A model generated the notes under the pieces. That model saw nothing but the letters and a program-made list of their open reading frames with translations, was not told where the DNA came from and did no database searches. DNA of 59,542 nucleotides from Oscillospiraceae bacterium. GTDB taxonomy: Bacteria; Bacillota; Clostridia; Oscillospirales; UBA929. Shown here one piece after another: positions 197 to 59,407 of this stretch. The stretch is taken from NCBI GenBank assembly GCA_031549735.1, contig JAVBPF010000048.1:1-59542 (forward strand), given 5' to 3'. Both the position numbers and the translations under genes were made by a program. Each line of letters begins with the position of its first letter. Within the stretch, counting starts at the first letter, position 1.

Positions 197-245
197 AAAA
201 AAACAGGCCGTGCTTGTCCGAAATCTCGGTACAAAGCACGGCCTG
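197..245 (-). terminator. Rho-independent terminator-like hairpin with a U-tract on the minus strand
   Basis: CAGGCCGTGCTTGT (204-217) pairs with ACAAAGCACGGCCTG (231-245) with one bulge. A7 at 197-203 gives a T-run after the stem on the minus strand. Confidence 0.55.
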
Positions 246-438
246 AAATGTTGTTGTTAGCAGCCGGCTTGTCCCTCTAACCCTTGCGGCTGTAAGCGAG
301 GCGTTGCGGCGTGTCTGCGACGACCTGGATCAAAAGAACATCTACGCATTCAATCCGGCGTTTGATGTAAGAAAGAGATAGCATACCCGCTGTATGCGCT
401 GTCCGATCACGGATTCTCCGTTTCCCGGATGTGAGAAG

Positions 439-3690: not shown

Positions 3691-4476
3691 TCAGTCCTGC
3701 GCAGGAGCGGCCGGGGCAACAGGAGCGGCCGAAGAGGAGTACGCGACAGGCGCGGCGGGCGCAACAGGCGCTTCCTCGGCGGCAGAACCCTGCTCGCCCT
3801 GACGGCCCTCGGTGATGGCGTTGGCCATAATGCTCGAAATGAGTTTAATGGCGCGAATCGCATCGTCGTTGCCGGGGATGGGATAGTCAATTTCGTCGGG
3901 ATCGCAGTTGGTATCGACGATGGCGACGATGGGAATACCCAGTTTGTGAGCCTCGGCGATGGCATTGCGCTCTTTGCGCGGATCGATGATGAACAGCGCG
4001 CCGGGCAGACGGTGCATGTCCTTGACGCCGCCCAAATATTTCTCGAGCTTGAGAATTTCGCCGTGCAGACGAATAACTTCTTTCTTGGGGAGCATGTCGA
4101 AGGTGCCGTCCTCCTGCATCTTCTTCAGCTGATTGAGCCGGTCAATGCGGCGGCGCATGGTCTTGAAGTTGGTCAGCATGCCGCCCAGCCAGCGGGCGTT
4201 GACAAAGAACATGCCGACACGCTCGGCTTCGGCCTTCACGGCGTCCTGCGCCTGTTTCTTCGTGCCGACAAACAGCAGGGTTTCGCCCGAGAGCGAAAGG
4301 TCACGCACGAACATGTAGGCCTCTTCGAGCTTTTTCACCGTCTTTTGCAGGTCGATGATCTAGATGCCGTTGCGCTCGGTGAAGATGAAGGGCGCCATTT
4401 TGGGGTTCCAGCGACGGGTCTGATGTCCGAAGTGGACACCGGCTTCGAGCAGTTGCTTCATGGATACGACAGCCAT
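3691..4476 (-). pseudogene. rpsB: 30S ribosomal protein S2 frame interrupted by one in-frame TAG at 4360-4362; otherwise full length
   Basis: ATG 4476 (RBS AGGAGG) gives [38 protein letters not shown]. This is followed by TAG, then in the same frame [17 protein letters not shown]... to the stop at 3691. Both ORF-track pieces (4360..4743 and 3691..4338) are in one frame. Confidence 0.9.
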
Positions 4477-4812: not shown

Positions 4813-4920
4813 AGACATAATAATTCCTTCTGTTCCAAAATTTCGTGCACGCTAAGTTTTTTTGGCCCGCAATATCGGGTTATAAGGTAACCGCTGAACC
4901 AATACGCCACAACGTCACAC

Positions 4921-4996
4921 CGGCCTTTTTGCGCCTTCCCGGTGCGCAAAAATTCTCGCCGTGCTGCCGCGTCGATTGATTCATCGGTTGCCCAGG
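4921..4996 (+). repeat. C-family intergenic repeat, short (internally deleted) copy C1
   Basis: GGCCTTTTTGCGCCTTCCCGGTGCGCAAAAATTCTCGCCG...TTGATTCATCGGTTGCCCAGG aligns with 44447-44589 and 59267-59407. Confidence 0.6.
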
Positions 4997-5094: not shown

Positions 5095-5910
5095 ATGGTC
5101 AAAATTCAACAGGACGAATTCATGCGTTTGGTTGATTACATGAAGGAACAATACGGCATCGATCTGGAACGGAAGATTACCCTTGTTGAGGGGCGCATTG
5201 CCAGTGTGCTCGAGCAAAAGGGATATGCGCAGTTTTCCGATTATTTTGATGACATCCTGCAGGACAAGACGGGTGCTGAAGCCAAAGTCCTGATCACCAA
5301 GCTCACCACAAACTACACCTATTTTATGCGGGAGGAGCAGCACTACCGGTATCTGGAGACCATAATACTGCCCGAGCTTGTGCGTACTTTGCAGGACAAG
5401 GATCTGCGCATTTGGAGCGCCGGGTGTTCCTCGGGCGAGGAGCCCTTTACCACGGCCATGGTGCTGGACAATTATTTCGGCCTGAACAAGGGCGCGTGGG
5501 ATACGCAGATTCTGGCCACCGACATTTCTCCGCAGGTTCTGGCGCAGGCACAGGAGGCGGTGTATCCCGCCGACAGGCTCAAGGGACTGCCGGAGGGTTG
5601 GCGCGGTCGGTATTTTGAGGAGCTGCCGCGCGACCGCGTACTGGTGCGCGACAGCATTCGCCGGGAAGTGATTTTCCGGCCATTCAACCTGATGCAGAAA
5701 ACCATGCCGTTTCGCCGCAAGTTCCATGTGATTTTTTGCCGCAATGTGATGATTTATTTTGACAAGCCGACGCGTGACGCTTTGGTCAATCGTTTTTTTG
5801 ACGTTCTTGAACCGGGGGGACATCTGTTCATCGGGATGGCGGAATCCATCAGCAAGCCCGACTGCCGATACCAGTATGTTCAACCCTCCATCTATCGACG
5901 TCCCCTCTGA
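5095..5910 (+). CDS. cheR: Chemotaxis protein methyltransferase CheR
   Basis: MVKIQQDEFMRLVDYMKEQYGIDLE..., with the SAM-binding motif LRIWSAGCSSGEEPFT and FCRNVMIYFD. GAAGGAGG RBS precedes ATG 5095; the ORF-track start at 4942 lacks an RBS. Confidence 0.93.
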   Translation: MVKIQQDEFMRLVDYMKEQYGIDLERKITLVEGRIASVLEQKGYAQFSDYFDDILQDKTGAEAKVLITKLTTNYTYFMREEQHYRYLETIILPELVRTLQDKDLRIWSAGCSSGEEPFTTAMVLDNYFGLNKGAWDTQILATDISPQVLAQAQEAVYPADRLKGLPEGWRGRYFEELPRDRVLVRDSIRREVIFRPFNLMQKTMPFRRKFHVIFCRNVMIYFDKPTRDALVNRFFDVLEPGGHLFIGMAESISKPDCRYQYVQPSIYRRPL

Positions 5911-6081
5911 GGGAGAGTACCCCATGACGGATCAAGACATGGCGCGGGATGTGAATTTTGCGTACCGGCATGACGCCGAAAGAGCGTTGTGGTGCTGTGA
6001 CATTTGAATCAGCGGATGTTTGTGACTGAGGAAGAACGAAGCTGTTGAAGGAAGGTTTGCCGTATCGAATCGAAAATCCGC

Positions 6082-7113
6082 GTGCTTCTGGTGGATGATT
6101 CGACCTTTTTTCGGAAAACGCTGGCCGGGAGCCTGAATGGAGATCCGGCTTTTGAGGTTGTCGGCGAGGCCGGCGACCCTTATGAGGCGCGCCAGTTGAT
6201 CATGAAACTGCGGCCCGACGTCATGACACTCGACGTCGAAATGCCGAGGATGAACGGTGTGGATTTCCTGAAAATCCTGATGCCGCAATGGCCTTTGCCC
6301 ATCGTGATTGTCAGTTCGGCCCGCGCGTTGGCCTCGGAGTGCCGCCGCTTCGGGGCTTTTGACTTTGTGCCCAAACCAACCGATTATTCGGGCGGCACAC
6401 TCGATGACTTTTTGAGTCACGTTCGAAACAGTTTGTACCGGGCGGCCCGGGCGCGGCTGCCCGCGGAGGAGCGGCGGACGGCCGGGTTGCCGGAGATGTC
6501 GGCCGAACCGGCGACGGAGGGCGCTTTCAGGTTCTCAGGGATAGTGGCGCTGGGTGCGTCGACGGGGGGCACCAAGAGCACGACACAGATCCTCCGGGCG
6601 TTGCCGAAGGACTTCCCCGGTATGGTGATCGTACAGCATATGCCCAATGAGTTCACGCGGCTCTACGCAGAATCGGTCAACAGAGAGAGTGTGCTGGAGG
6701 TTCGCGAGGCCAGAAACGGGGATCGCGTCGAGTCCGGTCATGTGCTGATCGCACCGGGTGACGCGCATATGGAGCTAGTCCGCACGGCTGTCGGCGGTTA
6801 TGCGGTACAGATTACGCGCGGGGAAAAAGTCAACGGACACCGGCCCTCGGTTGATGTACTGTTCCGTTCCGTGGCGCGATGGGCCGGCGCCAACGCCGTC
6901 GGAATCATTTTGACCGGGATGGGCGCTGACGGTGCGCGCGGGCTGCTGGACATGCGGCGGCACGGCGCGTTTACCATCGGGCAGGACGAGAAAAGCTCGG
7001 TGGTATATGGCATGCCCAAAGAAGCCTATGAGATGGGTGCCGTAACGCGGCAATGGCCGCTCGATCAGATTGCGCCGGGGCTTTTGCGGTATGTTAGAGA
7101 GATGAAGTACTGA
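6082..7113 (+). CDS. cheB: Protein-glutamate methylesterase / response regulator CheB
   Basis: REC domain (LLVDDS..., MTLDVEMPRMNG) plus methylesterase domain (GASTGG, HMPNEFT, GMGADG). GTG 6082 is the first in-frame start, so the start is uncertain. Confidence 0.92.
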   Translation: MLLVDDSTFFRKTLAGSLNGDPAFEVVGEAGDPYEARQLIMKLRPDVMTLDVEMPRMNGVDFLKILMPQWPLPIVIVSSARALASECRRFGAFDFVPKPTDYSGGTLDDFLSHVRNSLYRAARARLPAEERRTAGLPEMSAEPATEGAFRFSGIVALGASTGGTKSTTQILRALPKDFPGMVIVQHMPNEFTRLYAESVNRESVLEVREARNGDRVESGHVLIAPGDAHMELVRTAVGGYAVQITRGEKVNGHRPSVDVLFRSVARWAGANAVGIILTGMGADGARGLLDMRRHGAFTIGQDEKSSVVYGMPKEAYEMGAVTRQWPLDQIAPGLLRYVREMKY

Positions 7114-7689: not shown

Positions 7690-8284
7690 TTTCGTCGCCT
7701 CCAGCGGGGGACGACGGAGGACGTGACTTTCTTCACGCCAAGAAAGTCACCAAAGAGGCGTCTGGGGACGCGAGGTTTGTTTTTCATGCGAACGGCCTTT
7801 CCGCAAACGCTGTCATCCGGGCTCTGCCGGTTGATGCACAGTCTCCGAAGCGGTTCGATCCAAGGTTTTTATTCCATGCCGCGCGTTTTTGAAATCGCAA
7901 TCCCTAATCCTTGACGGCTGACGCGGGGTGGTGTGAAACGCGAGATCGACCTGTCAATCATAAGGCAAGGCGGCCACATGGGGTCGCCTCACGGGGGATC
8001 GTGAAAACATTTCCGGTGTTGCTCCGTTACTCAACCCCATCAGGGGATCCAACGGGGCCGGGGTCCCTTGGTCGTGGGGAAGGAATTCCAAAGGGAAACC
8101 CGATCGAAGGGGTTCTCTTTGGCGATTCTTTGGTGACTTTCTCATCGCAGAGAAAGTCACTTCGCGCCCGTCAAGCCTCGAGCGCGCCGCGCGGGCAGTC
8201 GTACTGTTCGCTCCGCGTGTGTCTAAACAGCCAGCGCTGCGGTGCCGTCTCGGTTTAGCCGCCCGCTGCGCTCACTGTACTCCT
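7690..8284 (+). repeat. E-family composite intergenic element, copy E1 (~0.6 kb)
   Basis: Module-by-module similarity to 30860-31525. Shared strings include CGGAGGACGTGACTTTCTTC.CGCCAAGAAAGTCACCAAAGAGGCG, CCCTAATCCTTGA, GGCGGCCACATGGGG, AAACCCGATCGAA.GGGTT and GTCAAGCCTCGAGCGCGCCGCGCGGGCAGTCGTACTGTT.GCTCCG.GTG.GTCTAAACAG. Confidence 0.85.
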
Positions 8285-8580
8285 TGCCGACCTGTTCGGC
8301 TCTTCGATGTCAAGCCTCGCGACGGTCGGCGGTCGGTCGGATAAGCCGACGCTCCGCCGGAAATGCCGCCGGGTCTGCGGCCCGCCCTGTTTTCCGGGCG
8401 CCGCTCGGGCTTATCCTTCCTGCCGACCTGTTCGGCTCTTCGATGTCAAGCCTCGCGACGGTCGGCGGTCGGTCGGATAAGCCGACGCTCCGCCGGAACT
8501 GCCGCCGGGTCTGCGGCCCGCCCTGTTTTCCGGGCGCCGCTCGGGCTTATCCTTCCTGCCGACCTGTTCGGCTCTTCGAT
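8285..8580 (+). repeat. 136-bp tandem repeat, about 2.2 copies, extending the right end of E1
   Basis: Units start at 8285, 8421 and 8557 (TGCCGACCTGTTCGGCTCTTCGAT...). The two full units differ at one position that I can see (GGAAATGCC vs GGAACTGCC). Confidence 0.9.
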
Positions 8581-10151: not shown

Positions 10152-10322
10152 AGGGGGATCCCATCGCTACCTATCGAAGCGGGGCTTCGATAGGTCACCG
10201 CGCCCCCTTTTGAGGGCTACCCGTCGAAACAGGTTTCGACAGGTTCCCGCATTATGGTTCCGCGCCCGTTGCGCGGGGTAAGGGATTTTTCCCGAAGTGA
10301 ATTCGGGAAAAATGATGAGAGC
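10152..10322 (+). repeat. D-family intergenic repeat, copy D1 (between flgB and flgC)
   Basis: Aligns with 38161-38332. Shared strings are GAGGGGG, TCGAAGCGGGGCTTCGA, TCGAAAC.GGTTTCGA, CCGCGC.CGTTGCGCGGG and TTTTTCCCG...TTCGGGAAAAATGA. Confidence 0.8.
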
Positions 10323-10359
10323 CGGCGGGGACGCGACTCGGCACAAAGGAGGCTAATGC

Positions 10360-10803: not shown

Positions 10804-10806
10804 TAA

Positions 10807-11006
10807 AACATTCGCGGGGCAATGTTTTGCAGGACGAAAAATCCTTTTTCGTCCTGAGGATTCTCGACCTGCGGGTCTCGCAGAGAAAAACTTTCGGGAA
10901 GTGAATCCCCGAAATTTTTGATTTCATTTCTTTTGCGAAAATCGGCAGAGCAAGAACCTGCCTGCTACGGCAGCCAGGCTCCGCGCGATTTTGGCAAAAG
11001 GATGCG
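10807..11006 (+). repeat. A-family mosaic intergenic element, copy A1 (between flgC and fliE)
   Basis: Modules are two element-specific hairpins, TTCTCGACCTGCGGGTCTCGCAGAGAAA, a hairpin with loop GAAGTGAAT, and CTTTTGCGAAAATCGGCAGAGCAAGAACCTGCC...CAGCCAGGCTCCGCGCGATTTTGGCAAAAGGA. Confidence 0.85.
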
Positions 11007-11048
11007 GGCTGCTGAAGCGGTTTCACGCGAATATGCGGAGGTGCTTTT

Positions 11049-11348: not shown

Positions 11349-11349
11349 G

Positions 11350-11575
11350 ACTTTTGAAGGGCTGTGGCCCTCCAAAAGTAGTGATTGGGCGAACGTTTCT
11401 GCGGCGAAATGAATTCGGGGAAAATGATATGGTTCGCCTGCGAAACGCAAGGAATGCGGGGGCAGGGACCGGTGAGCCGGGTTTTCCGTTGCGGCGGCCA
11501 GGCTCCGCGCGCTTTTCGAAATAGGACGGGGACAGCGCAGGGAATGCGAGGGTTTGGAAACGGGAGGGGCAGGCG
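11350..11575 (+). repeat. Composite B-family module plus a 3' partial A-family core (copy B1; between fliE and fliF)
   Basis: A post-stop hairpin (ACTTTTGAAGGGC/GCCCTCCAAAAGT) is followed by TTCTGCGGCGAAATGAATTCGGGG...TTCGCCTGCGAAACGCAAGGAATGCGGGGG and then CGGCGGCCAGGCTCCGCGCGCTTTTCGAAATAGGACGGGG. Confidence 0.75.
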
Positions 11576-15027: not shown

Positions 15028-15029
15028 TT

Positions 15030-15207
15030 TGTCGAAAAACCCTGTTTTTCGACAAGAGGGTTCTCGCCCTGCGGGGCTCGCAAAGAAAACCTTTGGTGAA
15101 GTGAATCCCCCAAAGGTTTGATCCTCATTGCTTTTGCCAAAATCGGCGGAGCAAGAACCTGGCCGAGAGGCGGCCAGGCTCCACACGAGTATGGCACAAG
15201 GACGGGG
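15030..15207 (+). repeat. A-family mosaic intergenic element, copy A2 (between fliH and fliI)
   Basis: GTCGAAAAACCCTGTTTTTCGAC hairpin, GGGTTCTCGCCCTGCGGGGCTCGCAAAGAAA, AAACCTTTGG-TGAAGTGAATCCC-CCAAAGGTTT, then CTTTTGCCAAAATCGGCGGAGCAAGAACCTGGCCGAGAGGCGGCCAGGCTCC. Confidence 0.88.
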
Positions 15208-15358
15208 GCCACGTGGCTTCTTTGACAGTGGGAGAATGAATTGTTATACAGCAATGACCAGTGTGTGAGGACGGGTTTCCATGCCCGTCAGTCTTCAAGA
15301 TGAACGCGGCGGGCCGGCATGGAAGCCGGCCCCTACTTGTATATGGGAGGGATGTTCC

Positions 15359-28719: not shown

Positions 28720-29595
28720 ATGAATTGTGTTGGGCTGAACCGCTGCCATAAGAAAGGGGCGGGCAGGCATGTCAGAGACCGGCTTCGCAGGTCTTTGAAG
28801 CTTGTCCTCCTTTTGTCATGCCTGTTGCCCTGTTTGCTTTTGATGACGTCGACCGCTTCGGCCACCGGAACACAGCCGAACGACGGCGGTATCGATTACG
28901 CGGCGACCGACGCCGACACCTTCCCGCTCAATCTGTTGGGCTCCGACATGACGGTGGAGGGTTCCACCACAACGCTTGAAATCATCCTGCTGTTGACCGT
29001 GCTCACGCTGGCGCCGTCCATTCTCATCATGGTGACGGCGTTCACGCGTATTGTCATCGTGCTGTCGTTCACACGAAACGCCATGGGGACACAGCAGATG
29101 CCGCCCAACCAGGTCATGGTCGGGCTGGCGCTGTTTCTCACGCTGTTTGTCATGTGGCCGGTGTTTACCGAGATCAAGTCCGAGGCCTGGGATCCGTATG
29201 CCGCCGAGGAGATTACGGCCGACGAGGCGCTGGATCGGGCGGTGCAGCCGCTGCGGACGTTTATGTTCAAGCAGATCAACACGCACAGCAACCAGAGTGA
29301 TTTGCGCACATTCATCGATATCGCCGGCATCGACCCGCCCGAGACCGACGACGATATCCCCACGCACGTGCTCATTCCGGCCTTCATCACCAGCGAAATC
29401 AAAACGGCCTTTCAAATCGGATTCATGATCTTTATTCCCTTCATTGTCATTGACATGATCGTCGCCTCGGCGCTGATGTCGATGGGTATGATGATGCTTC
29501 CCCCGGTCATGATTTCCCTGCCGTTTAAGATCATGCTATTCGTTTTGGTCGACGGCTGGAATCTGACGATACAGAGCCTTATACAAACCTTTTGA
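28720..29595 (+). CDS. fliP: Flagellar export gate protein FliP
   Basis: Signal/TM segment followed by [44 protein letters not shown]...[35 protein letters not shown]. Confidence 0.95.
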
Positions 29596-29725
29596 AGCGC
29601 GAGCGCTTCAAAAGGTGATGATTGTATAGACGTTTCTGCGGCGATGCGTATTCGCCTGCGAAACGCAAGGAATGCGAGAGTTGGATGGGGAAACGAGCGA
29701 AGTGAATCCGCTCATATTTCGATGG
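29587..29725 (+). repeat. B-family module, copy B2 (between fliP and fliQ); its first hairpin overlaps the fliP stop codon
   Basis: ACCTTTTGAAGCG/CGCTTCAAAAGGT hairpin, TTCTGCGGCGATGCGTATTCGCCTGCGAAACGCAAGGAATGCGAGAGTTGGATGG, then GAGCG-AAGTGAATC-CGCTC. Confidence 0.75.
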
Positions 29726-30859: not shown

Positions 30860-31525
30860 GGTTTGTTTGTCCTCACAGGGACGAACGGAGGTATCTCTCC
30901 TGCGGGAGGCAGCGGAGGACGTGACTTTCTTCCCGCCAAGAAAGTCACCAAAGAGGCGTTTTGGGGAACGAAACCAGCTTTTAGCGAAAATTGCTTCTCC
31001 GCACACGCTTTTATCCGGGCTTTGCCGGTTGTCTCACGGCCACCGAAACGGTGAGGTCAAAGCTTCGGTTGGGATCAATTCTCTTGTCAGTTGTACTCCC
31101 TAATCCTTGATGGCGTGTACTACTGGATTGCGACGACCGGGGATTGTGGCGCGAGGGCGGCCACATGGGGCCGCCCCTACGGAGACGATTTTCGGTTTTC
31201 CGTTGCCCCCGCTTCTCACTCCTTGGGGATCCAATGGGGCCGAAGCCCCTTGGTCGGTTGAGGAAAGGAGTCCAGAGGAAAACCCGATCGAAAGGGTTTG
31301 TCTCTGGCGGTTCTTTGGTTCCTTTCTGTCCGTACAGAAAGGAACTCGTCCGGGGACGAAACAACCCCAGTCTCGGCTCTTCGATGTCAAGCCTCGAGCG
31401 CGCCGCGCGGGCAGTCGTACTGTTTGCTCCGTGTGCGTCTAAACAGTCAGCGTTGCGGCGTTGCCTTGGTTTAGCCGCCCACTGCGCTCACTGTACTCCT
31501 TGCGCGTCGACGAGGCTCTTCGATT
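30860..31525 (+). repeat. E-family composite intergenic element, copy E2 (between fliR and flhB)
   Basis: Collinear with 7690-8284 and contains the same ordered modules. The hairpin at 31338-31365 differs from its E1 counterpart (8133-8160) by three compensatory base-pair changes. Confidence 0.85.
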
Positions 31526-39247: not shown

Positions 39248-40003
39248 TTGGATGATTTGAACCGCGCAACCATCTTATGGGACGCATTTTTTGCGTCGCG
39301 CAATATGGAGTCACGCAACGAGCTGGTTATGCTGTATCTGCCGTTGGTCAAGAGTATTGTCCGACGGCTGGTGCCCACCTATCGGAAGCATGTGGATTTC
39401 GACGATCTGATGAGCTGCGGCGTATTGGGGCTCATGGACGCCATCGATAAATACGATAAAACGAAAGAGGTCAAGTTTGAGACCTACGCGTCCCTGCGCG
39501 TCAAAGGCGAGATCATCGATCAGATCCGCAAGCAGGATTGGGCGCCCATCAGCCTGCGCCAGAAAATCAAGCGTGTCGAGGAAGGGTTTGCTACGCTTGA
39601 GAACAAAATGGGGCGCGCCGTCAGCGAGCAAGAGGTGGCCGATCATCTCAAAATGGACGTGGGCAGCGTGCAAAAGACGCTCGAGGACGCGCACAGCTTC
39701 CATGTTATCGCGTTGGACGAGCTGCTGATGAACCATGTGTCGGGCAGCGGCGACGATTCGTTTGCCAGCGGAGAGATGACGCCCGAGCAAAAGGTTGAGG
39801 CGCAGGAGATGAAGCGGCTGTTGGTCGAGTTCATCGAGCAGCTGCCCGAGAAGGAACGCCTGGTCATCTCGCTCTATTACTTCGAGGAGCTGACCCTGAA
39901 GGAAATCGGCCTGACACTCGGCGTGTCCGAGTCACGGGTGTCGCAGATTCATTCCAAGGTGATCCTGTCGCTCAAGCGCAAGATGCAGGAGGCGATTGCC
40001 TAA
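39248..40003 (+). CDS. fliA: Flagellar sigma factor FliA/SigD (sigma-28)
   Basis: Region 2 sequence DDLMSCGVLGLMDAIDKYD...FETYASLRVKGEIIDQIRKQDW and region 4 sequence LTLKEIGLTLGVSESRVSQIHSKV. GGAGG lies 8 nt before TTG 39248. Confidence 0.93.
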   Translation: MDDLNRATILWDAFFASRNMESRNELVMLYLPLVKSIVRRLVPTYRKHVDFDDLMSCGVLGLMDAIDKYDKTKEVKFETYASLRVKGEIIDQIRKQDWAPISLRQKIKRVEEGFATLENKMGRAVSEQEVADHLKMDVGSVQKTLEDAHSFHVIALDELLMNHVSGSGDDSFASGEMTPEQKVEAQEMKRLLVEFIEQLPEKERLVISLYYFEELTLKEIGLTLGVSESRVSQIHSKVILSLKRKMQEAIA

Positions 40004-40188
40004 AGGATTGAAAACGGGGTTTTCAATCCTTTAAGGGGTTCTCGGCCTGCGGACCTTACAGTGAAAATCATTGGTGAAGTGAATTCCCCAATGATTTGAC
40101 TCTCATTGCTTTTGCCAAAATCGGTGGAGCAGGAACCTGCCCGCTGCGGCGGTCAGGCTCCACGCGCTTGATGGCAAAAGGACGGGGA
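40004..40188 (+). repeat. A-family mosaic intergenic element, copy A3 (immediately after the fliA stop)
   Basis: GGATTGAAAACGGGGTTTTCAATCC hairpin, GGGGTTCTCGGCCTGCGGACC, AAATCATTGG-TGAAGTGAATTCC-CCAATGATTT, then CTTTTGCCAAAATCGGTGGAGCAGGAACCTGCCCGCTGCGGCGGTCAGGCTCC...GGCAAAAGGACGGGG. Confidence 0.88.
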
Positions 40189-40227
40189 CGAGACGTTTTT
40201 CAATGACTCATCGTGGAGGTGGGTATT

Positions 40228-42567: not shown

Positions 42568-42577
42568 GGAACAACAC

Positions 42578-42797
42578 AAAGGCGTCAATCGAAAAAACGA
42601 TTGACGCCTTTGCTTTCGCTTGTTGAAAAACCTCGTTTTCCAACAAAGGGGCTCTCGTCCTGAGGGACTCGCATAGAAATGCTTTTGGAAAGTGAATTTC
42701 CGAAAGCATTGATTCTCATAACTTTTGCGAAAATCGATGGAGCAAGAACCTGTCCGCGCGGCGGCCAGGCTCCATGCAATTTTGGCAAAAGGACGGG
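42578..42797 (+). repeat. A-family mosaic intergenic element, copy A4; its first hairpin probably also serves as the mreB terminator
   Basis: AAAGGCGTCAATCG-AAAAAA-CGATTGACGCCTTT (42578-42611), GGGGCTCTCGTCCTGAGGGACTCGCATAGAAA, AATGCTTT..AAAGTGAAT..AAAGCATT, then CTTTTGCGAAAATCGATGGAGCAAGAACCTGTCCGCGCGGCGGCCAGGCTCCAT...TTTTGGCAAAAGGACGGG. Confidence 0.85.
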
Positions 42798-42863
42798 AAA
42801 CACGGCGAAGGGAATACGTGTTGGAGCGACCCGTCGATGATTCAGTGGTGAGTGTTTCCCGGA

Positions 42864-44367: not shown

Positions 44368-44446
44368 GCCTGAATCCACCTCCCTTCACTTATGGGACGA
44401 GACAGCGGGGAAAAAGGTTACTTAGGTAACACTGATCTAATCCCTC

Positions 44447-44589
44447 TCAGCATCATGACGGCCTTTTTTCACCCTGATTGCGTTGCAAAAACTTGAAAGG
44501 CACAAAGCATTCCTTCGTTTTTGCGTCTTGCCAGTGCGCTAAGATTCTCGCCGAATCACCATGTCTTAATTGATCAGCGGTCACCCAGG
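44447..44589 (+). repeat. C-family intergenic repeat, full copy C2
   Basis: CAGCATCATGACGGCCTTTTTT...GCGTTGCAAAAACTTGAAAGGCACAAAGCATTCCTTCGTTTTTGCGTCTTGCCAGTGCGCTAAGATTCTCGCCG...TTAATTGATCAGCGGTCACCCAGG aligns along its length with 59267-59407. Confidence 0.8.
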
Positions 44590-44593
44590 TAGC

Positions 44594-44632
44594 AACAACG
44601 GCGTCAATCGTTTTTCGATTGACGCCGTTGTT
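44594..44632. other. 17-bp hairpin sharing its 11-nt arms with the hairpin at 42578-42611
   Basis: AACAACGGCGTCAATCG-TTTTT-CGATTGACGCCGTTGTT. It lies 77 nt 3' of murC on the minus strand and may be its terminator, although the U-tract is poor. Confidence 0.7.
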
Positions 44633-55579: not shown

Positions 55580-55583
55580 TTCA

Positions 55584-55825
55584 TGTAACGAAATGTTTTT
55601 TCGTTACGTGAGGGGGGATCTCGATCTGCGGATCTCGCAAAGAAATTCGATTGGGAAGTGAATCCCCAATCGAATGGATCACCATTCTTTTGCAAAAATC
55701 GGAAGAGCAAGAACCCAACCGCTGCGGCGGTCGGGCTCCGCGCGTTTTTTGCAAAAGGACGGGAGACGCGGCGAAGTAAATTCGTCTGCACAACGCAAGG
55801 AATGCGTGGGGTTGGATGCGTCGCC
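55584..55825 (+). repeat. A-family element copy A5 fused to a B-family fragment (B3), after carB
   Basis: GTAACGAAATGTTTTTTCGTTAC hairpin, GGGGATCTCGATCTGCGGATCTCGCAAAGAAA, ATTCGATTGGG-AAGTGAAT-CCCCAATCGAAT and CTTTTGCAAAAATCGGAAGAGCAAGAACCCAACCGCTGCGGCGGTCGGGCTCC...TTTTTTGCAAAAGGACGGG. This is followed by ...CGTCTGCACAACGCAAGGAATGCGTGGGGTTGGATG. Confidence 0.85.
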
Positions 55826-55913
55826 GAGTTGGAGATGTGGCCGCATTGGCAATCGCGCCAACACAGAGAGTGAACAATGTTTCTCAATGACAGCATTGAG
55901 GGAGGCTTAGCAC

Positions 55914-58298: not shown

Positions 58299-59248
58299 CG
58301 AAAGGTAATAATGTGTCGGGAAACGCCGGAAAATATGTTGATTTGTCGGTAAATATGGCCGGAATGAGCATGAAAAACCCGGTCGCCGTGGCCTCCGGCA
58401 CCTTCGGATTTGGCCGGGAGTATAGTTTGCGGTTCGATTTGAACCGTTTGGGGGCTATCTGTGTAAAGGGAATCACCTTGTCGCCCAGGCAGGGCAATCC
58501 GCCTCCGCGCATCGCCGAAACGCCGATGGGGATGCTCAACAGCGTCGGGCTGCAAAATCCCGGTGTTCACGCGTTCGTGCGAGATGAGCTGCCTTTTCTG
58601 CGCGGCTTCGACGTAAAAGTGATTGCCAACCTGTCGGGCAACACGGTGGAGGAGTATGCGCAGCTGGCGGCGCTGCTTTCGGAGGCGGGTGTGGATATGC
58701 TCGAGGTCAACATCTCCTGCCCCAATGTAAAGGAAGGCGGCCTTACCTTCGGGGTCGATCCCGATATGGCGGCGGCGGTTACCGCAGCGGTCAAACGCGA
58801 GGCCGGTATGACGCCAGTCATGGTCAAGCTGACGCCCAACACGTCGCAGATGGCCGAAATCGCCCGGCGTGTTGAAGCGGCGGGCGCCGACGCGCTTTCG
58901 CTGATCAACACGCTGACCGGCATGTGGATCGATGTGGAGACAAGACGCCCGATCCTGTACAACAACATCGGCGGACTGTCCGGTCCGGCGGTATTGCCGG
59001 TCGCCGTGCGGTGCGTCTATGAGGTGCGCCGCGCCGTGAAGCTGCCGATTCTGGGCATGGGCGGCGTACGCAGCACGTCCGACGCCGTGCAGCTGATGCT
59101 GGCGGGCGCCGACGCCGTGGCTGTGGGTACCGCGCTCTTTTTGGAGCCGGAGGCGCCGATTCAGGTCATTGACGGACTTGAGGCGTATTGTGTACAGCAT
59201 GGCCTGGAAAACGTCTCCGCGCTGACCGGCGGTCTTTTGCCTTGGTAA
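58295..59248 (+). CDS. pyrD: Dihydroorotate dehydrogenase (class 1B) catalytic subunit PyrD
   Basis: [18 protein letters not shown]...GLQNPGV...[13 protein letters not shown]...VKLTPN...LSLINT...GGLSGPA. The start overlaps the pyrK stop. Confidence 0.95.
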
Positions 59249-59266
59249 CCCCTGATCAAATGCCCC

Positions 59267-59407
59267 ACAGCATCGCGGTGGCCTTTTTGCCCCCCGGCGG
59301 CGTTGCAAGAATTTAAAAGGCACAAAGCATTCCTTCGGTTTTGCGCCTTGCCAGTGTGGAAAAATTCTCGCCGCGCTACATTGTTGATTTAATCAGTGCT
59401 TACGGCA
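59267..59407 (+). repeat. C-family intergenic repeat, full copy C3
   Basis: CAGCATCGCGGTGGCCTTTTTG...GCGTTGCAAGAATTTAAAAGGCACAAAGCATTCCTTCGGTTTTGCGCCTTGCCAGTGTGGAAAAATTCTCGCCG...TTGATTTAATCAGTGCTTACGG. Confidence 0.8.

Follow-up and report, generated by a model that had tools for sequence, protein, structure and literature searches.

The 59,542-nt stretch of DNA analysed here (contig JAVBPF010000048.1 of an Oscillospiraceae bacterium, hereafter the window) carries che genes, a Firmicutes-type flagellar operon, a gene for a sigD-type sigma factor, an mreB-like gene, a gene pair for an extracytoplasmic function (ECF) sigma factor and its anti-sigma factor, and a pyrimidine-biosynthesis cluster. 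Between these genes lie five copies of a structured repeat (i.e., A1-A5), whose nature is the subject of this work. A first-pass annotation of the window had described them as five co-oriented elements of about 200 nt, and this description holds. The core pattern CTTTTGCNAAAATCGNNNGAGCARGAACC matches the window five times (at 10930, 15131, 40109, 42722 and 55687), always on the plus strand and with no match expected by chance. Furthermore, a covariance model made from the five copies (R1) scores them at 158-166 bits, with everything else in the window at 30 bits or below. The copies measure 195-215 nt, of which about 150 nt can be aligned at a mean column identity of 69%, and the only open reading frames (ORFs) inside them are spurious antisense ones. 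As detailed below, the five copies are probably old, diverged members of an ORF-less, non-autonomous transposable element family of Oscillospiraceae, about 200-215 bp in length, that resembles MITEs (miniature transposable elements with inverted repeats).

Copy A1 (10830-11025, plus strand, as are all others) separates flgC from fliE and consists of a left-terminal hairpin at 10830-10856 (CAGGACGAAAAA-TCC-TTTTTCGTCCTG) and a core at 10858-11010, with a decayed right end whose coordinate is approximate. Copy A2 (15029-15229) is found between fliH and fliI; its left hairpin (15029-15055) holds the left end TGTCGAAAAA, its core covers 15058-15210 and a degenerate right end (TTCTTTGACAG) can be placed at about 15218-15228. 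The third copy, A3 (40001-40206), follows a fliA/sigD-type sigma factor gene and precedes a 123-aa ORF of unknown function. Its left hairpin (40001-40033) overlaps the stop codon, and behind its core (40037-40190) a right end at 40195-40204 (GTTTTTCAAT) repeats the 3' arm of the left hairpin. Copy A4 (42619-42825; left hairpin 42619-42648, core 42650-42801) lies downstream of the mreB-like gene, whose terminator-like hairpin at 42577-42612 precedes it, and faces the convergent anti-sigma gene, with no co-directional gene downstream. Finally, A5 (55583-55789; left hairpin 55583-55609, core 55616-55767) follows carB in the pyrimidine-biosynthesis cluster, with a module of a second repeat family directly 3' of it and a gene for a Zn-ribbon/F5_F8-type C-domain protein downstream. 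As the upstream genes are this mixed (flagellar, sigma factor, mreB-like and carB), the element is not tied to flagellar genes. Neither a sigma-70-type promoter nor a canonical terminator was found inside the copies, which suggests to us that the operon transcript runs through A1 and A2. The GC skew is positive over the whole window and all copies lie on the G-rich, probably leading, strand; thus, the directions of transcription and replication are inseparable within the window. Two further observations concern these neighbourhoods. Database look-ups with FliH and FlgC had no match, and FliE led only to a contig of 1734 nt from the Logan assembly of SRR23967709 (L160). This contig begins inside A1 at the conserved CTTTTGC, which fits an assembly break at a multi-copy repeat. 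Downstream of A2, fliI probably starts about 78 nt later than its longest ORF implies, judging from the database copy of the window's own FliI, which has 442 aa compared to 468 aa for the ORF.

The copies share an architecture of which much had already been proposed in the first-pass annotation. Each copy has a hairpin after the upstream stop codon, and perfect palindromes are frequent among the stems. The block GGGTTCTCG.CCTGCGG..CTCGCA is found as described, as is a hairpin with the constant loop GAAGTGAAT, whose stems are unrelated between the copies yet complementary. A long stem, CTTTTGC.AAAATCG/CGATTTTGGCAAAAG (RNA form CUUUUGCNAAAAUCG/CGAUUUUGGCAAAAG), encloses GGAGC...GCTCC. RNAalifold on the five window copies recovered this long-range stem together with a 4-bp hairpin closed by a UGCG/UGAG loop (P2), the constant-loop hairpin of 10-12 bp with unrelated stems around the loop AAGUGAAU (P3), a 6-nt bulge (AAGAAC) and an apical stem. 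Double changes occur in 13 of the 50 predicted pairs. The two compensatory changes reported between A5 and A2 are correct, but a further position of this stem is an A.C mismatch. Compared to their own shuffles, the copies fold with z-scores of -2.5 to -5.3. UNCG-type tetraloops cap P2 and the apical stem on the plus strand, and the reverse strand folds equally well. In A1, P3 followed by GTTTTTCTCT on the minus strand (10892-10914) scores as an intrinsic-terminator-like site, through which the element could block antisense transcription.

To our reading of Rfam 15, the element is unnamed, as had been supposed: none of its families, among them Termite-flg, HEARO, IS605-orfB motifs, c-di-GMP riboswitches and self-cleaving ribozymes, reaches the gathering score or even E ≤ 10 at the window elements, and ten cross-genus loci likewise have no match at E ≤ 1. 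Relatives do occur in other genomes. R1 finds one diverged relative after rplL in a metagenome-assembled genome (MAG; L283), which agrees with the window copies in layout and in its P3 loop and in which the proposed closing helix is fully covaried. A pattern of the 5' half, GNNCTGCGGNNC-N20-GAAGTGAATYCC, gives 13 matches in genome contigs, 10 of them in Oscillospiraceae-type MAGs, with relatives in Sporobacter, Papillibacter, Flavonifractor/Pseudoflavonifractor-like, termite-gut and other Oscillospiraceae-type MAGs. A pattern from the canonical 3' half matches 64 stretches. About 40 of them lie in the 4.6-Mb Sporobacter chromosome OY776214.1, while a second Sporobacter MAG contributes about a dozen and a Papillibacter MAG several. 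The model R2 confirms 59 copies, and the Sporobacter chromosome holds at least 40. The neighbours in these genomes are unrelated housekeeping genes and one tRNA gene, so that no gene class is linked to the element, and because of this gene-independent distribution we rejected a link of the window copies to CsrA, PyrR or flagellar regulation. No transposase or reverse transcriptase gene, and no tnpA, tnpB or RAYT gene, adjoins the cross-genome copies examined. In viral contigs a loose pattern gave chance-level matches only and a specific pattern none, and a canonical copy had no BLAST match among plasmids and phages.

The Sporobacter copies define the ends of the element. With a length of 213±2 nt, they share about 90% identity, which points to recent activity. 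Their consensus carries 16-nt terminal inverted repeats (left, CAGACTGTCGAAAAAG; right, CTTTTTCGACAAGCTG), starting with CAGAC-TGTCGAAAAAG and ending with CTTTTTCGACAAG-CTG; the absence of terminal inverted repeats noted at first thus describes the decayed window copies and not the family. The right-end sequence recurs inside the element, and by pairing with this internal copy the left repeat forms a terminator-like hairpin. Copy-specific direct repeats of 19-37 nt (median 25.5) flank 22 of 23 full Sporobacter copies, the two members of the pair being identical in 15. With the first 16 copies these flanking repeats were individually not significant, and they became clear once the Sporobacter boundaries were exact. 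All 22 fold as hairpins; their sequences are unrelated, and each stem measures 6 bp or more. An A-tract often stands 5' of the flanking repeat, and only the right copy has a T-rich tail behind it, as in the example of L313 (caaaagcccggcagcggagaatttcgctgccgggct|CAGAC...element...CGACAAA|caaaagcccggcagcggagaatttcgctgccgggct|ttcttttat). Thus, the target is an intrinsic terminator, the element sits between its stem and its T-tract, and the whole hairpin is duplicated. The target is chosen by structure, not by sequence.

Several other arrangements were seen among these copies. Solitary or widely spaced matches to the inverted repeats, as an autonomous parent might give, included an interrupted copy (L341) and a deleted copy (L353). 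In the former (5827-7017, minus strand), the hairpin duplication is intact and P3 is split by an unrelated low-GC insertion of about 950 nt, which has a 5-nt flanking repeat (TAATG) and a 167-aa ORF without Pfam match. The latter is an internally deleted mini-copy of about 55 nt (400-460) made up of the left hairpin and the right end only. In a Sporobacter MAG (L289), two inverted copies (234-316, minus strand; 3709-3791, plus strand) flank a three-gene ABC-transporter operon in a manner resembling a composite transposon. A solitary terminator of the GTCAAAAAAGCCGC...GCGGCTTTTTTGAC type (L292, 3787-3818) is similar to the left hairpin of the element.

The window copies are homologous to these young insertions. 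A hidden Markov model (HMM) built from the 23 Sporobacter copies, without any window copy, matches all five on the plus strand and nothing else significantly (A1, 10844-10934, E 6e-10; A2, E 7e-15; A3, E 5e-7; A4, E 1e-13; A5, E 1e-7). For A2, the alignment begins at model position 1 (i.e., the left inverted repeat), and the post-stop hairpin TGTCGAAAAA-CCCTG-TTTTTCGACA corresponds to the left-terminal hairpin of the family minus its apical GC stem. For A1 and A4, it begins at the 3' arm of this hairpin. Therefore, the hairpin that had been called copy-specific is part of the element. It is indeed present in all copies, and it is copy-specific only in part, as its inner YGAAAA/TTTTCR is conserved. 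The left repeat is thus kept in the window, and the right repeat is plausible, if degenerate, in A2 (TTCTTTGACAG) and A3 (GTTTTTCAAT) and unclear in A1, A4 and A5. In the window copies, the right half (GAGCAAGAACCUG...) is specific to the lineage and replaces the canonical GACCAGACAACUCGCC hairpin and a small UCGCACGGCGA hairpin, so that the 3' half has been swapped between lineages. Two exact window-type core patterns gave no match in genome contigs, and this 3' domain appears to be unique to the window's genome, as judged from the available sequences. A relaxed core pattern had 79 matches in metagenome contigs, none of which was confirmed by R1, and we attribute them to chance.

Relatives of the window's organism allowed us to examine the insertion sites themselves. 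FliI places the organism among termite-gut-type Oscillospiraceae MAGs, with a best match of 85% identity. R1 had no match across 80 FliI loci of relatives, hence the element is not ancestral to the operon. Two MAGs with 84-85% FliI identity (L281 and L282) have the same flagellar gene order as the window, with spacers of 24-63 nt among flgB, flgC, fliE, fliF and fliG and of 8-89 nt between fliH and fliI. These spacers contain neither hairpin nor element, and both were therefore gained together in the window's lineage. This comparison covered the sites in the flagellar operon. We read the window copies as old insertions, in keeping with their diverged sequences. An extra hairpin at 10805-10828 upstream of A1 (AAAACATT-N8-AATGTTTT), located directly 3' of the flgC stop codon and overlapping a tandem second TAA, may be the remnant of a target hairpin; no second copy of it was found downstream and no flanking direct repeat. 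Since a second hairpin with its T-tract would terminate transcription within an operon, its loss would be expected. In other relatives (L003, 5800-5990; L001, 5900-5990), different and unrelated hairpin-rich inserts occupy the fliH-fliI spacer, which seems to accept insertions repeatedly in this clade. Altogether, the elements are small, ORF-less and multi-copy, the family has terminal inverted repeats and target duplications, and the relatives have empty orthologous sites. Judged by the standard proposed in the first-pass annotation, the latter two observations, made at family level, class the element as a MITE.

The strict co-orientation seen in the window does not extend to the family, which includes copies that are antisense or divergent to their neighbours or arranged in inverted pairs. 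On the Sporobacter chromosome, 22 copies lie on the plus and 18 on the minus strand, and their orientation matches the sign of the local GC skew, taken as a proxy for replication direction, in 20 of 40 cases and is thus unrelated to it. With gene orientation taken from long ORFs only, so that the counts are approximate, 45 copies with both neighbours typed fall into 22 convergent, 19 co-directional and 4 divergent contexts, and the co-directional ones comprise 16 sense and 3 antisense copies (two-sided binomial p ~0.004, our own calculation). The 5' domain usually starts 60-100 nt past the stop codon in the Sporobacter set. This sense bias could stem from a polar recognition of the terminator. 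A constraint acting on the transcript, which had been favoured for the window copies, stays plausible in view of the bias.

Sixteen sequences from several genera align without gaps over 83 columns, with conserved loops and unpaired junctions. In P2 and P3, 93% of positions are paired compared to 64% in shuffles and double changes are found in 13 of 16 pairs, values reached by none of 500 shuffles, which bears out the structure-preserving variation proposed from the window. Within Sporobacter, the subfamilies include AAUGC/GCAUU, AACGC/GCGUU and AAUAC/GUAUU for P3 and GCGC/GCGC, GCAC/GUGC and GGCC/GGCC for P2, each common to independent young insertions, and G.U and A.C intermediates coexist with the compensated subfamilies. 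As compensated variants are common to independent young insertions, selection acted on proliferating element lineages and not locus by locus. Covariation by itself cannot prove a host function. The UNCG-type loops, the G.U intermediates and the sense bias lean towards a constraint at the RNA level; the equal folding of both strands and a possible polar recognition of terminators lean away from it. We also looked by eye for a pseudoknot joining the loop of P3 to the linker behind it and discarded it, as the complementarity is inconsistent and the contact sterically unlikely.

These data bear directly on a different explanation, according to which the element is a host-functional structured RNA (i.e., a cis element in 3' untranslated regions (3'-UTRs) or within operons, or a processed small RNA) derived from a domesticated MITE, whose transposon-like spread accounts for its distribution only. 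Through its AAGUGAAU loop it would contact a conserved protein or RNA and so adjust the stability of mRNAs, their processing or their termination. The covarying stems around loops and junctions conserved across genera speak for this explanation, as do the tetraloops on the plus strand, the side-by-side G.U and compensated states, the 16:3 sense bias with copies directly after stop codons, and the good pairing of window copies that are only 69% identical. However, no gene class is linked to the element, the relatives' orthologous sites lack it, and no orthologous copy was seen between genomes in the handful of cross-genome contexts examined. Moreover, its 3' half is replaced between lineages, its minus strand folds just as well, the sense bias could reflect polar terminator recognition, and the sharing of compensated variants by young insertions places selection on the element lineages. 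We therefore consider a host RNA unlikely. A riboswitch or other cis-regulatory leader can be set aside, as the neighbours are unrelated, A4 lacks a co-directional downstream gene and the orthologous spacers are empty.

Still less probable is a by-product at the DNA level, in which intrastrand template switching keeps the palindromes perfect without any selection on the fold. Quasi-palindromes are known to be corrected through template switching, and the many perfect palindromes and the equal folding of both strands agree with it. Yet the 4-bp P2 and the long-range stems with 40-70 nt of separation covary too, an internal mismatch in P3 persists among the Sporobacter copies, and the conservation of loops and junctions across genera would be left unexplained; taken together, these points make the by-product very improbable. 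Least credible of all is a single-strand (HUH) transposon derivative, be it an IS200/IS605-type palindrome-associated element or a REP/RAYT repeat, perhaps with the guide-RNA scaffold of a TnpB-like nuclease: hairpins at or near the left end, an RNA-like structured interior and the position of all window copies on the G-rich strand recall such elements, which however lack the terminal inverted repeats (CAG...CTG) and target duplications found here, and neither the orientation, unrelated to the local GC-skew sign, nor the flanks (copy-specific hairpins with no conserved short target motif before the left end), nor the lack of tnpA, tnpB and RAYT genes beside the copies examined, nor the absent matches to HEARO and IS605-orfB-type families fit them. 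A structure-specific enzyme, as first proposed, is thus probably involved, and its assignment to the HUH/RAYT or IS200/IS605 type finds no support. A group IIC intron does not account for an element of about 200 nt with target duplications and no Rfam intron match.

Some points speak against a MITE-like family. One would not usually expect a plain MITE to have stems that covary across genera around conserved loops and junctions, and the UNCG-type loops, G.U intermediates and sense bias, the latter from approximate counts, suggest an RNA-level role. Neither a transposase nor an autonomous parent was found in the window or in about 0.45 Mb of sequence from the Sporobacter clade (i.e., Sporobacter, Papillibacter and related MAG sequence). 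In addition, the window copies have no detectable flanking duplication, and the case for their mobility is built on homology and on the empty sites of fairly distant relatives with 84-85% FliI identity. We nevertheless regard the MITE-like family as the probable explanation, and one apparently undescribed so far as a MITE family that targets terminator hairpins: Rfam and a recent review of MITEs (PMC10969869) list no such element.

For this MITE-like family, we envision the following route. A DDE-type transposase supplied in trans would join the 3' ends of the element at the feet of an extruded cruciform or hairpin, which would explain why the duplication is as long as the hairpin. A stagger of 19-37 bp that tracks the stem length is, by our reasoning, hard to obtain on linear duplex DNA and natural if the feet are adjacent in a cruciform. 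Insertion would strip the T-tract from the first hairpin copy, and without it transcription would carry the element along at the 3' end of the upstream mRNA or, in the window, as a spacer within the operon. The internal hairpins would be kept by selection on proliferating element lineages, either for transposition competence or for harmlessness and stability of the read-through RNA. In the window's lineage, copies entered the short spacers of the flagellar operon, and others follow sigma-factor, mreB-like and carB genes. All of them have kept the left hairpin with P2 and P3, carry the lineage-specific 3' domain and have lost the duplications and most of the right repeat. More tentatively, and with considerable doubt on our part, the P2-P3 module with its AAGUGAAU loop may be a functional RNA or single-stranded DNA fold needed by the element, or a domesticated 3'-UTR RNA that binds a host protein. 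In the former case, the RNA or hairpin of the element might recruit the transposase or help it to locate terminator hairpins, and the family would represent a structure-guided, terminator-homing transposon system whose duplications have the length of the hairpin, which is known to date only from a drawn model.

Pieces of the family and other repeats are also present in the window. A partial copy at 11470-11545 (plus strand) between fliE and fliF, likewise recognised in the first-pass annotation, retains only the 3' part of the core (CGGCGGCCAGGCTCCGCGCGCTTTTCGAAATAGGACGGG), with 11486-11530 matching the corresponding 3' region of the other copies at 69-84% identity (family D4), and is fused to a module of another repeat family. 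A remnant between flgB and flgC (10256-10332, plus strand) resembles the 5' half only, with model scores of 19.2 and 25.2 bits, and holds at 10285-10313 the hairpin ATTTTTCCC-GAAGTGAAT-TCGGGAAAAAT with the family loop. This loop recurs in an isolated hairpin at 29690-29715 (plus strand; GAGCG-AAGTGAATC-CGCTC) inside a copy of the second repeat family. The latter is found at 11349-11470, 29587-29680, 55768-55830 and also 42800-42835, always on the plus strand, and is fused to A-family pieces at 11470 and 55768. Its layout comprises a post-stop hairpin (ACTTTTGAAG.../...CTTCAAAAGT), then GTTTCTGCGGCGA...TTCGCCTGCGAAAC and a small hairpin, CGCA-AGGAA-UGCG, whose GGA loop resembles CsrA/RsmA binding sites. 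A third family of about 150 nt (GGTAACC.CTGA...GGCCTTTTTGC...TTTTGCG.CTTGCCAGTG...AAGATTCTCGCCG; 61-79% identity, no Rfam match) occurs on the plus strand upstream of cheR (4886-4983), upstream of the ECF sigma gene on the other strand (44421-44575) and after pyrD (59241-59395). A 136-nt unit is repeated about 2.2 times in tandem at 8280-8580 with 93-98% identity. Some 600 nt around it (7699-8287) are duplicated about 23 kb away (30897-31524) at 75-91% identity, and both places adjoin small ORFs without Pfam match in the che/flagellar region. Finally, near-identical, inverted hairpins with 11-bp stems (GGCGTCAATCG...CGATTGACGCC) at 42577-42612 and 44594-44632 bracket A4 and the ECF sigma/anti-sigma pair, the second being followed by TGTCGAAGAAA, which resembles the left end of the A family.

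Several consequences follow if the window copies are MITE-like insertions. The large structured spacers of this flagellar operon are then to be annotated as transposon relics and not as flagellum-specific riboswitches or leaders. For transposon biology, the family offers dozens of natural cases in which a whole terminator hairpin of variable length is duplicated, and with them direct sequence evidence for an attack at the hairpin feet. Insertion puts the element into the 3' end of a host transcript and rebuilds the terminator behind it, a neat route to harmlessness. For RNA evolution, it provides a tractable case for studying why a mobile element keeps covarying internal hairpins.

The family shares single traits with a number of known systems. 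Class C group II introns also insert just 3' of intrinsic-terminator hairpins; as ribozymes, they reach 600 nt or more and leave the target unduplicated, and none of their domains is seen in the present element. The Termite-flg RNA motif is known from termite-gut metagenomes, upstream of flagellar genes. Our element resembles it in coming from a lineage related by habitat and, for three window copies, in lying near flagellar genes, but the motif has no match at the elements (E ≤ 10), which also follow mreB-like, carB and housekeeping genes. The bcr1 repeat of the Bacillus cereus group, Correia/NEMIS and ERIC are small, ORF-less, multi-copy intergenic elements, often co-transcribed, with stable RNA folds and a modular make-up. 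The same holds for BOX, RUP and SPRITE of S. pneumoniae, the last of which has a terminator-like hairpin (PMC10969869, PMC3049150). In all of these, the duplications are short and fixed (e.g. TA or TTTAT), whereas here they are set by the hairpin and span 19-37 nt, and none is reported to show covariation around conserved loops across genera, as compared by description and Rfam. REP/BIME sequences, described in part in PMC2817692, are palindromic mosaics enriched at gene 3' ends and between convergent genes, with a proposed mRNA-stabilising role. Their units of 20-40 nt are mobilised by HUH enzymes and have no terminal inverted repeats or target duplications, in contrast to the 200-nt element with both.

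The closest parallel in target choice is provided by IS1272 and TnSha1 of staphylococci (IS1182 family), which recognise terminator-type hairpins by structure, in either orientation and without sequence consensus (PMC4923244, PMC5678879). These are autonomous elements of 1.9 kb that delete or replace the hairpin and leave no duplication (PMC5678879, PMC4923244). Our family likewise inserts at structure-chosen hairpins (22 of 22 duplicated targets, mostly with a T-rich tail), yet it has no ORF, measures about 213 bp and makes a second copy of the hairpin; a derivation from an IS1182-type element would be hypothetical. A duplication of the whole hairpin is predicted by the cruciform-attack model for IS1272 (PMC5678879, Fig. 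13, pathway b), where it was drawn and not observed. Thus, whole-hairpin duplication has been proposed for hairpin-targeting insertion sequences, yet those studied so far delete their hairpin, and the Sporobacter copies carry it on both sides.

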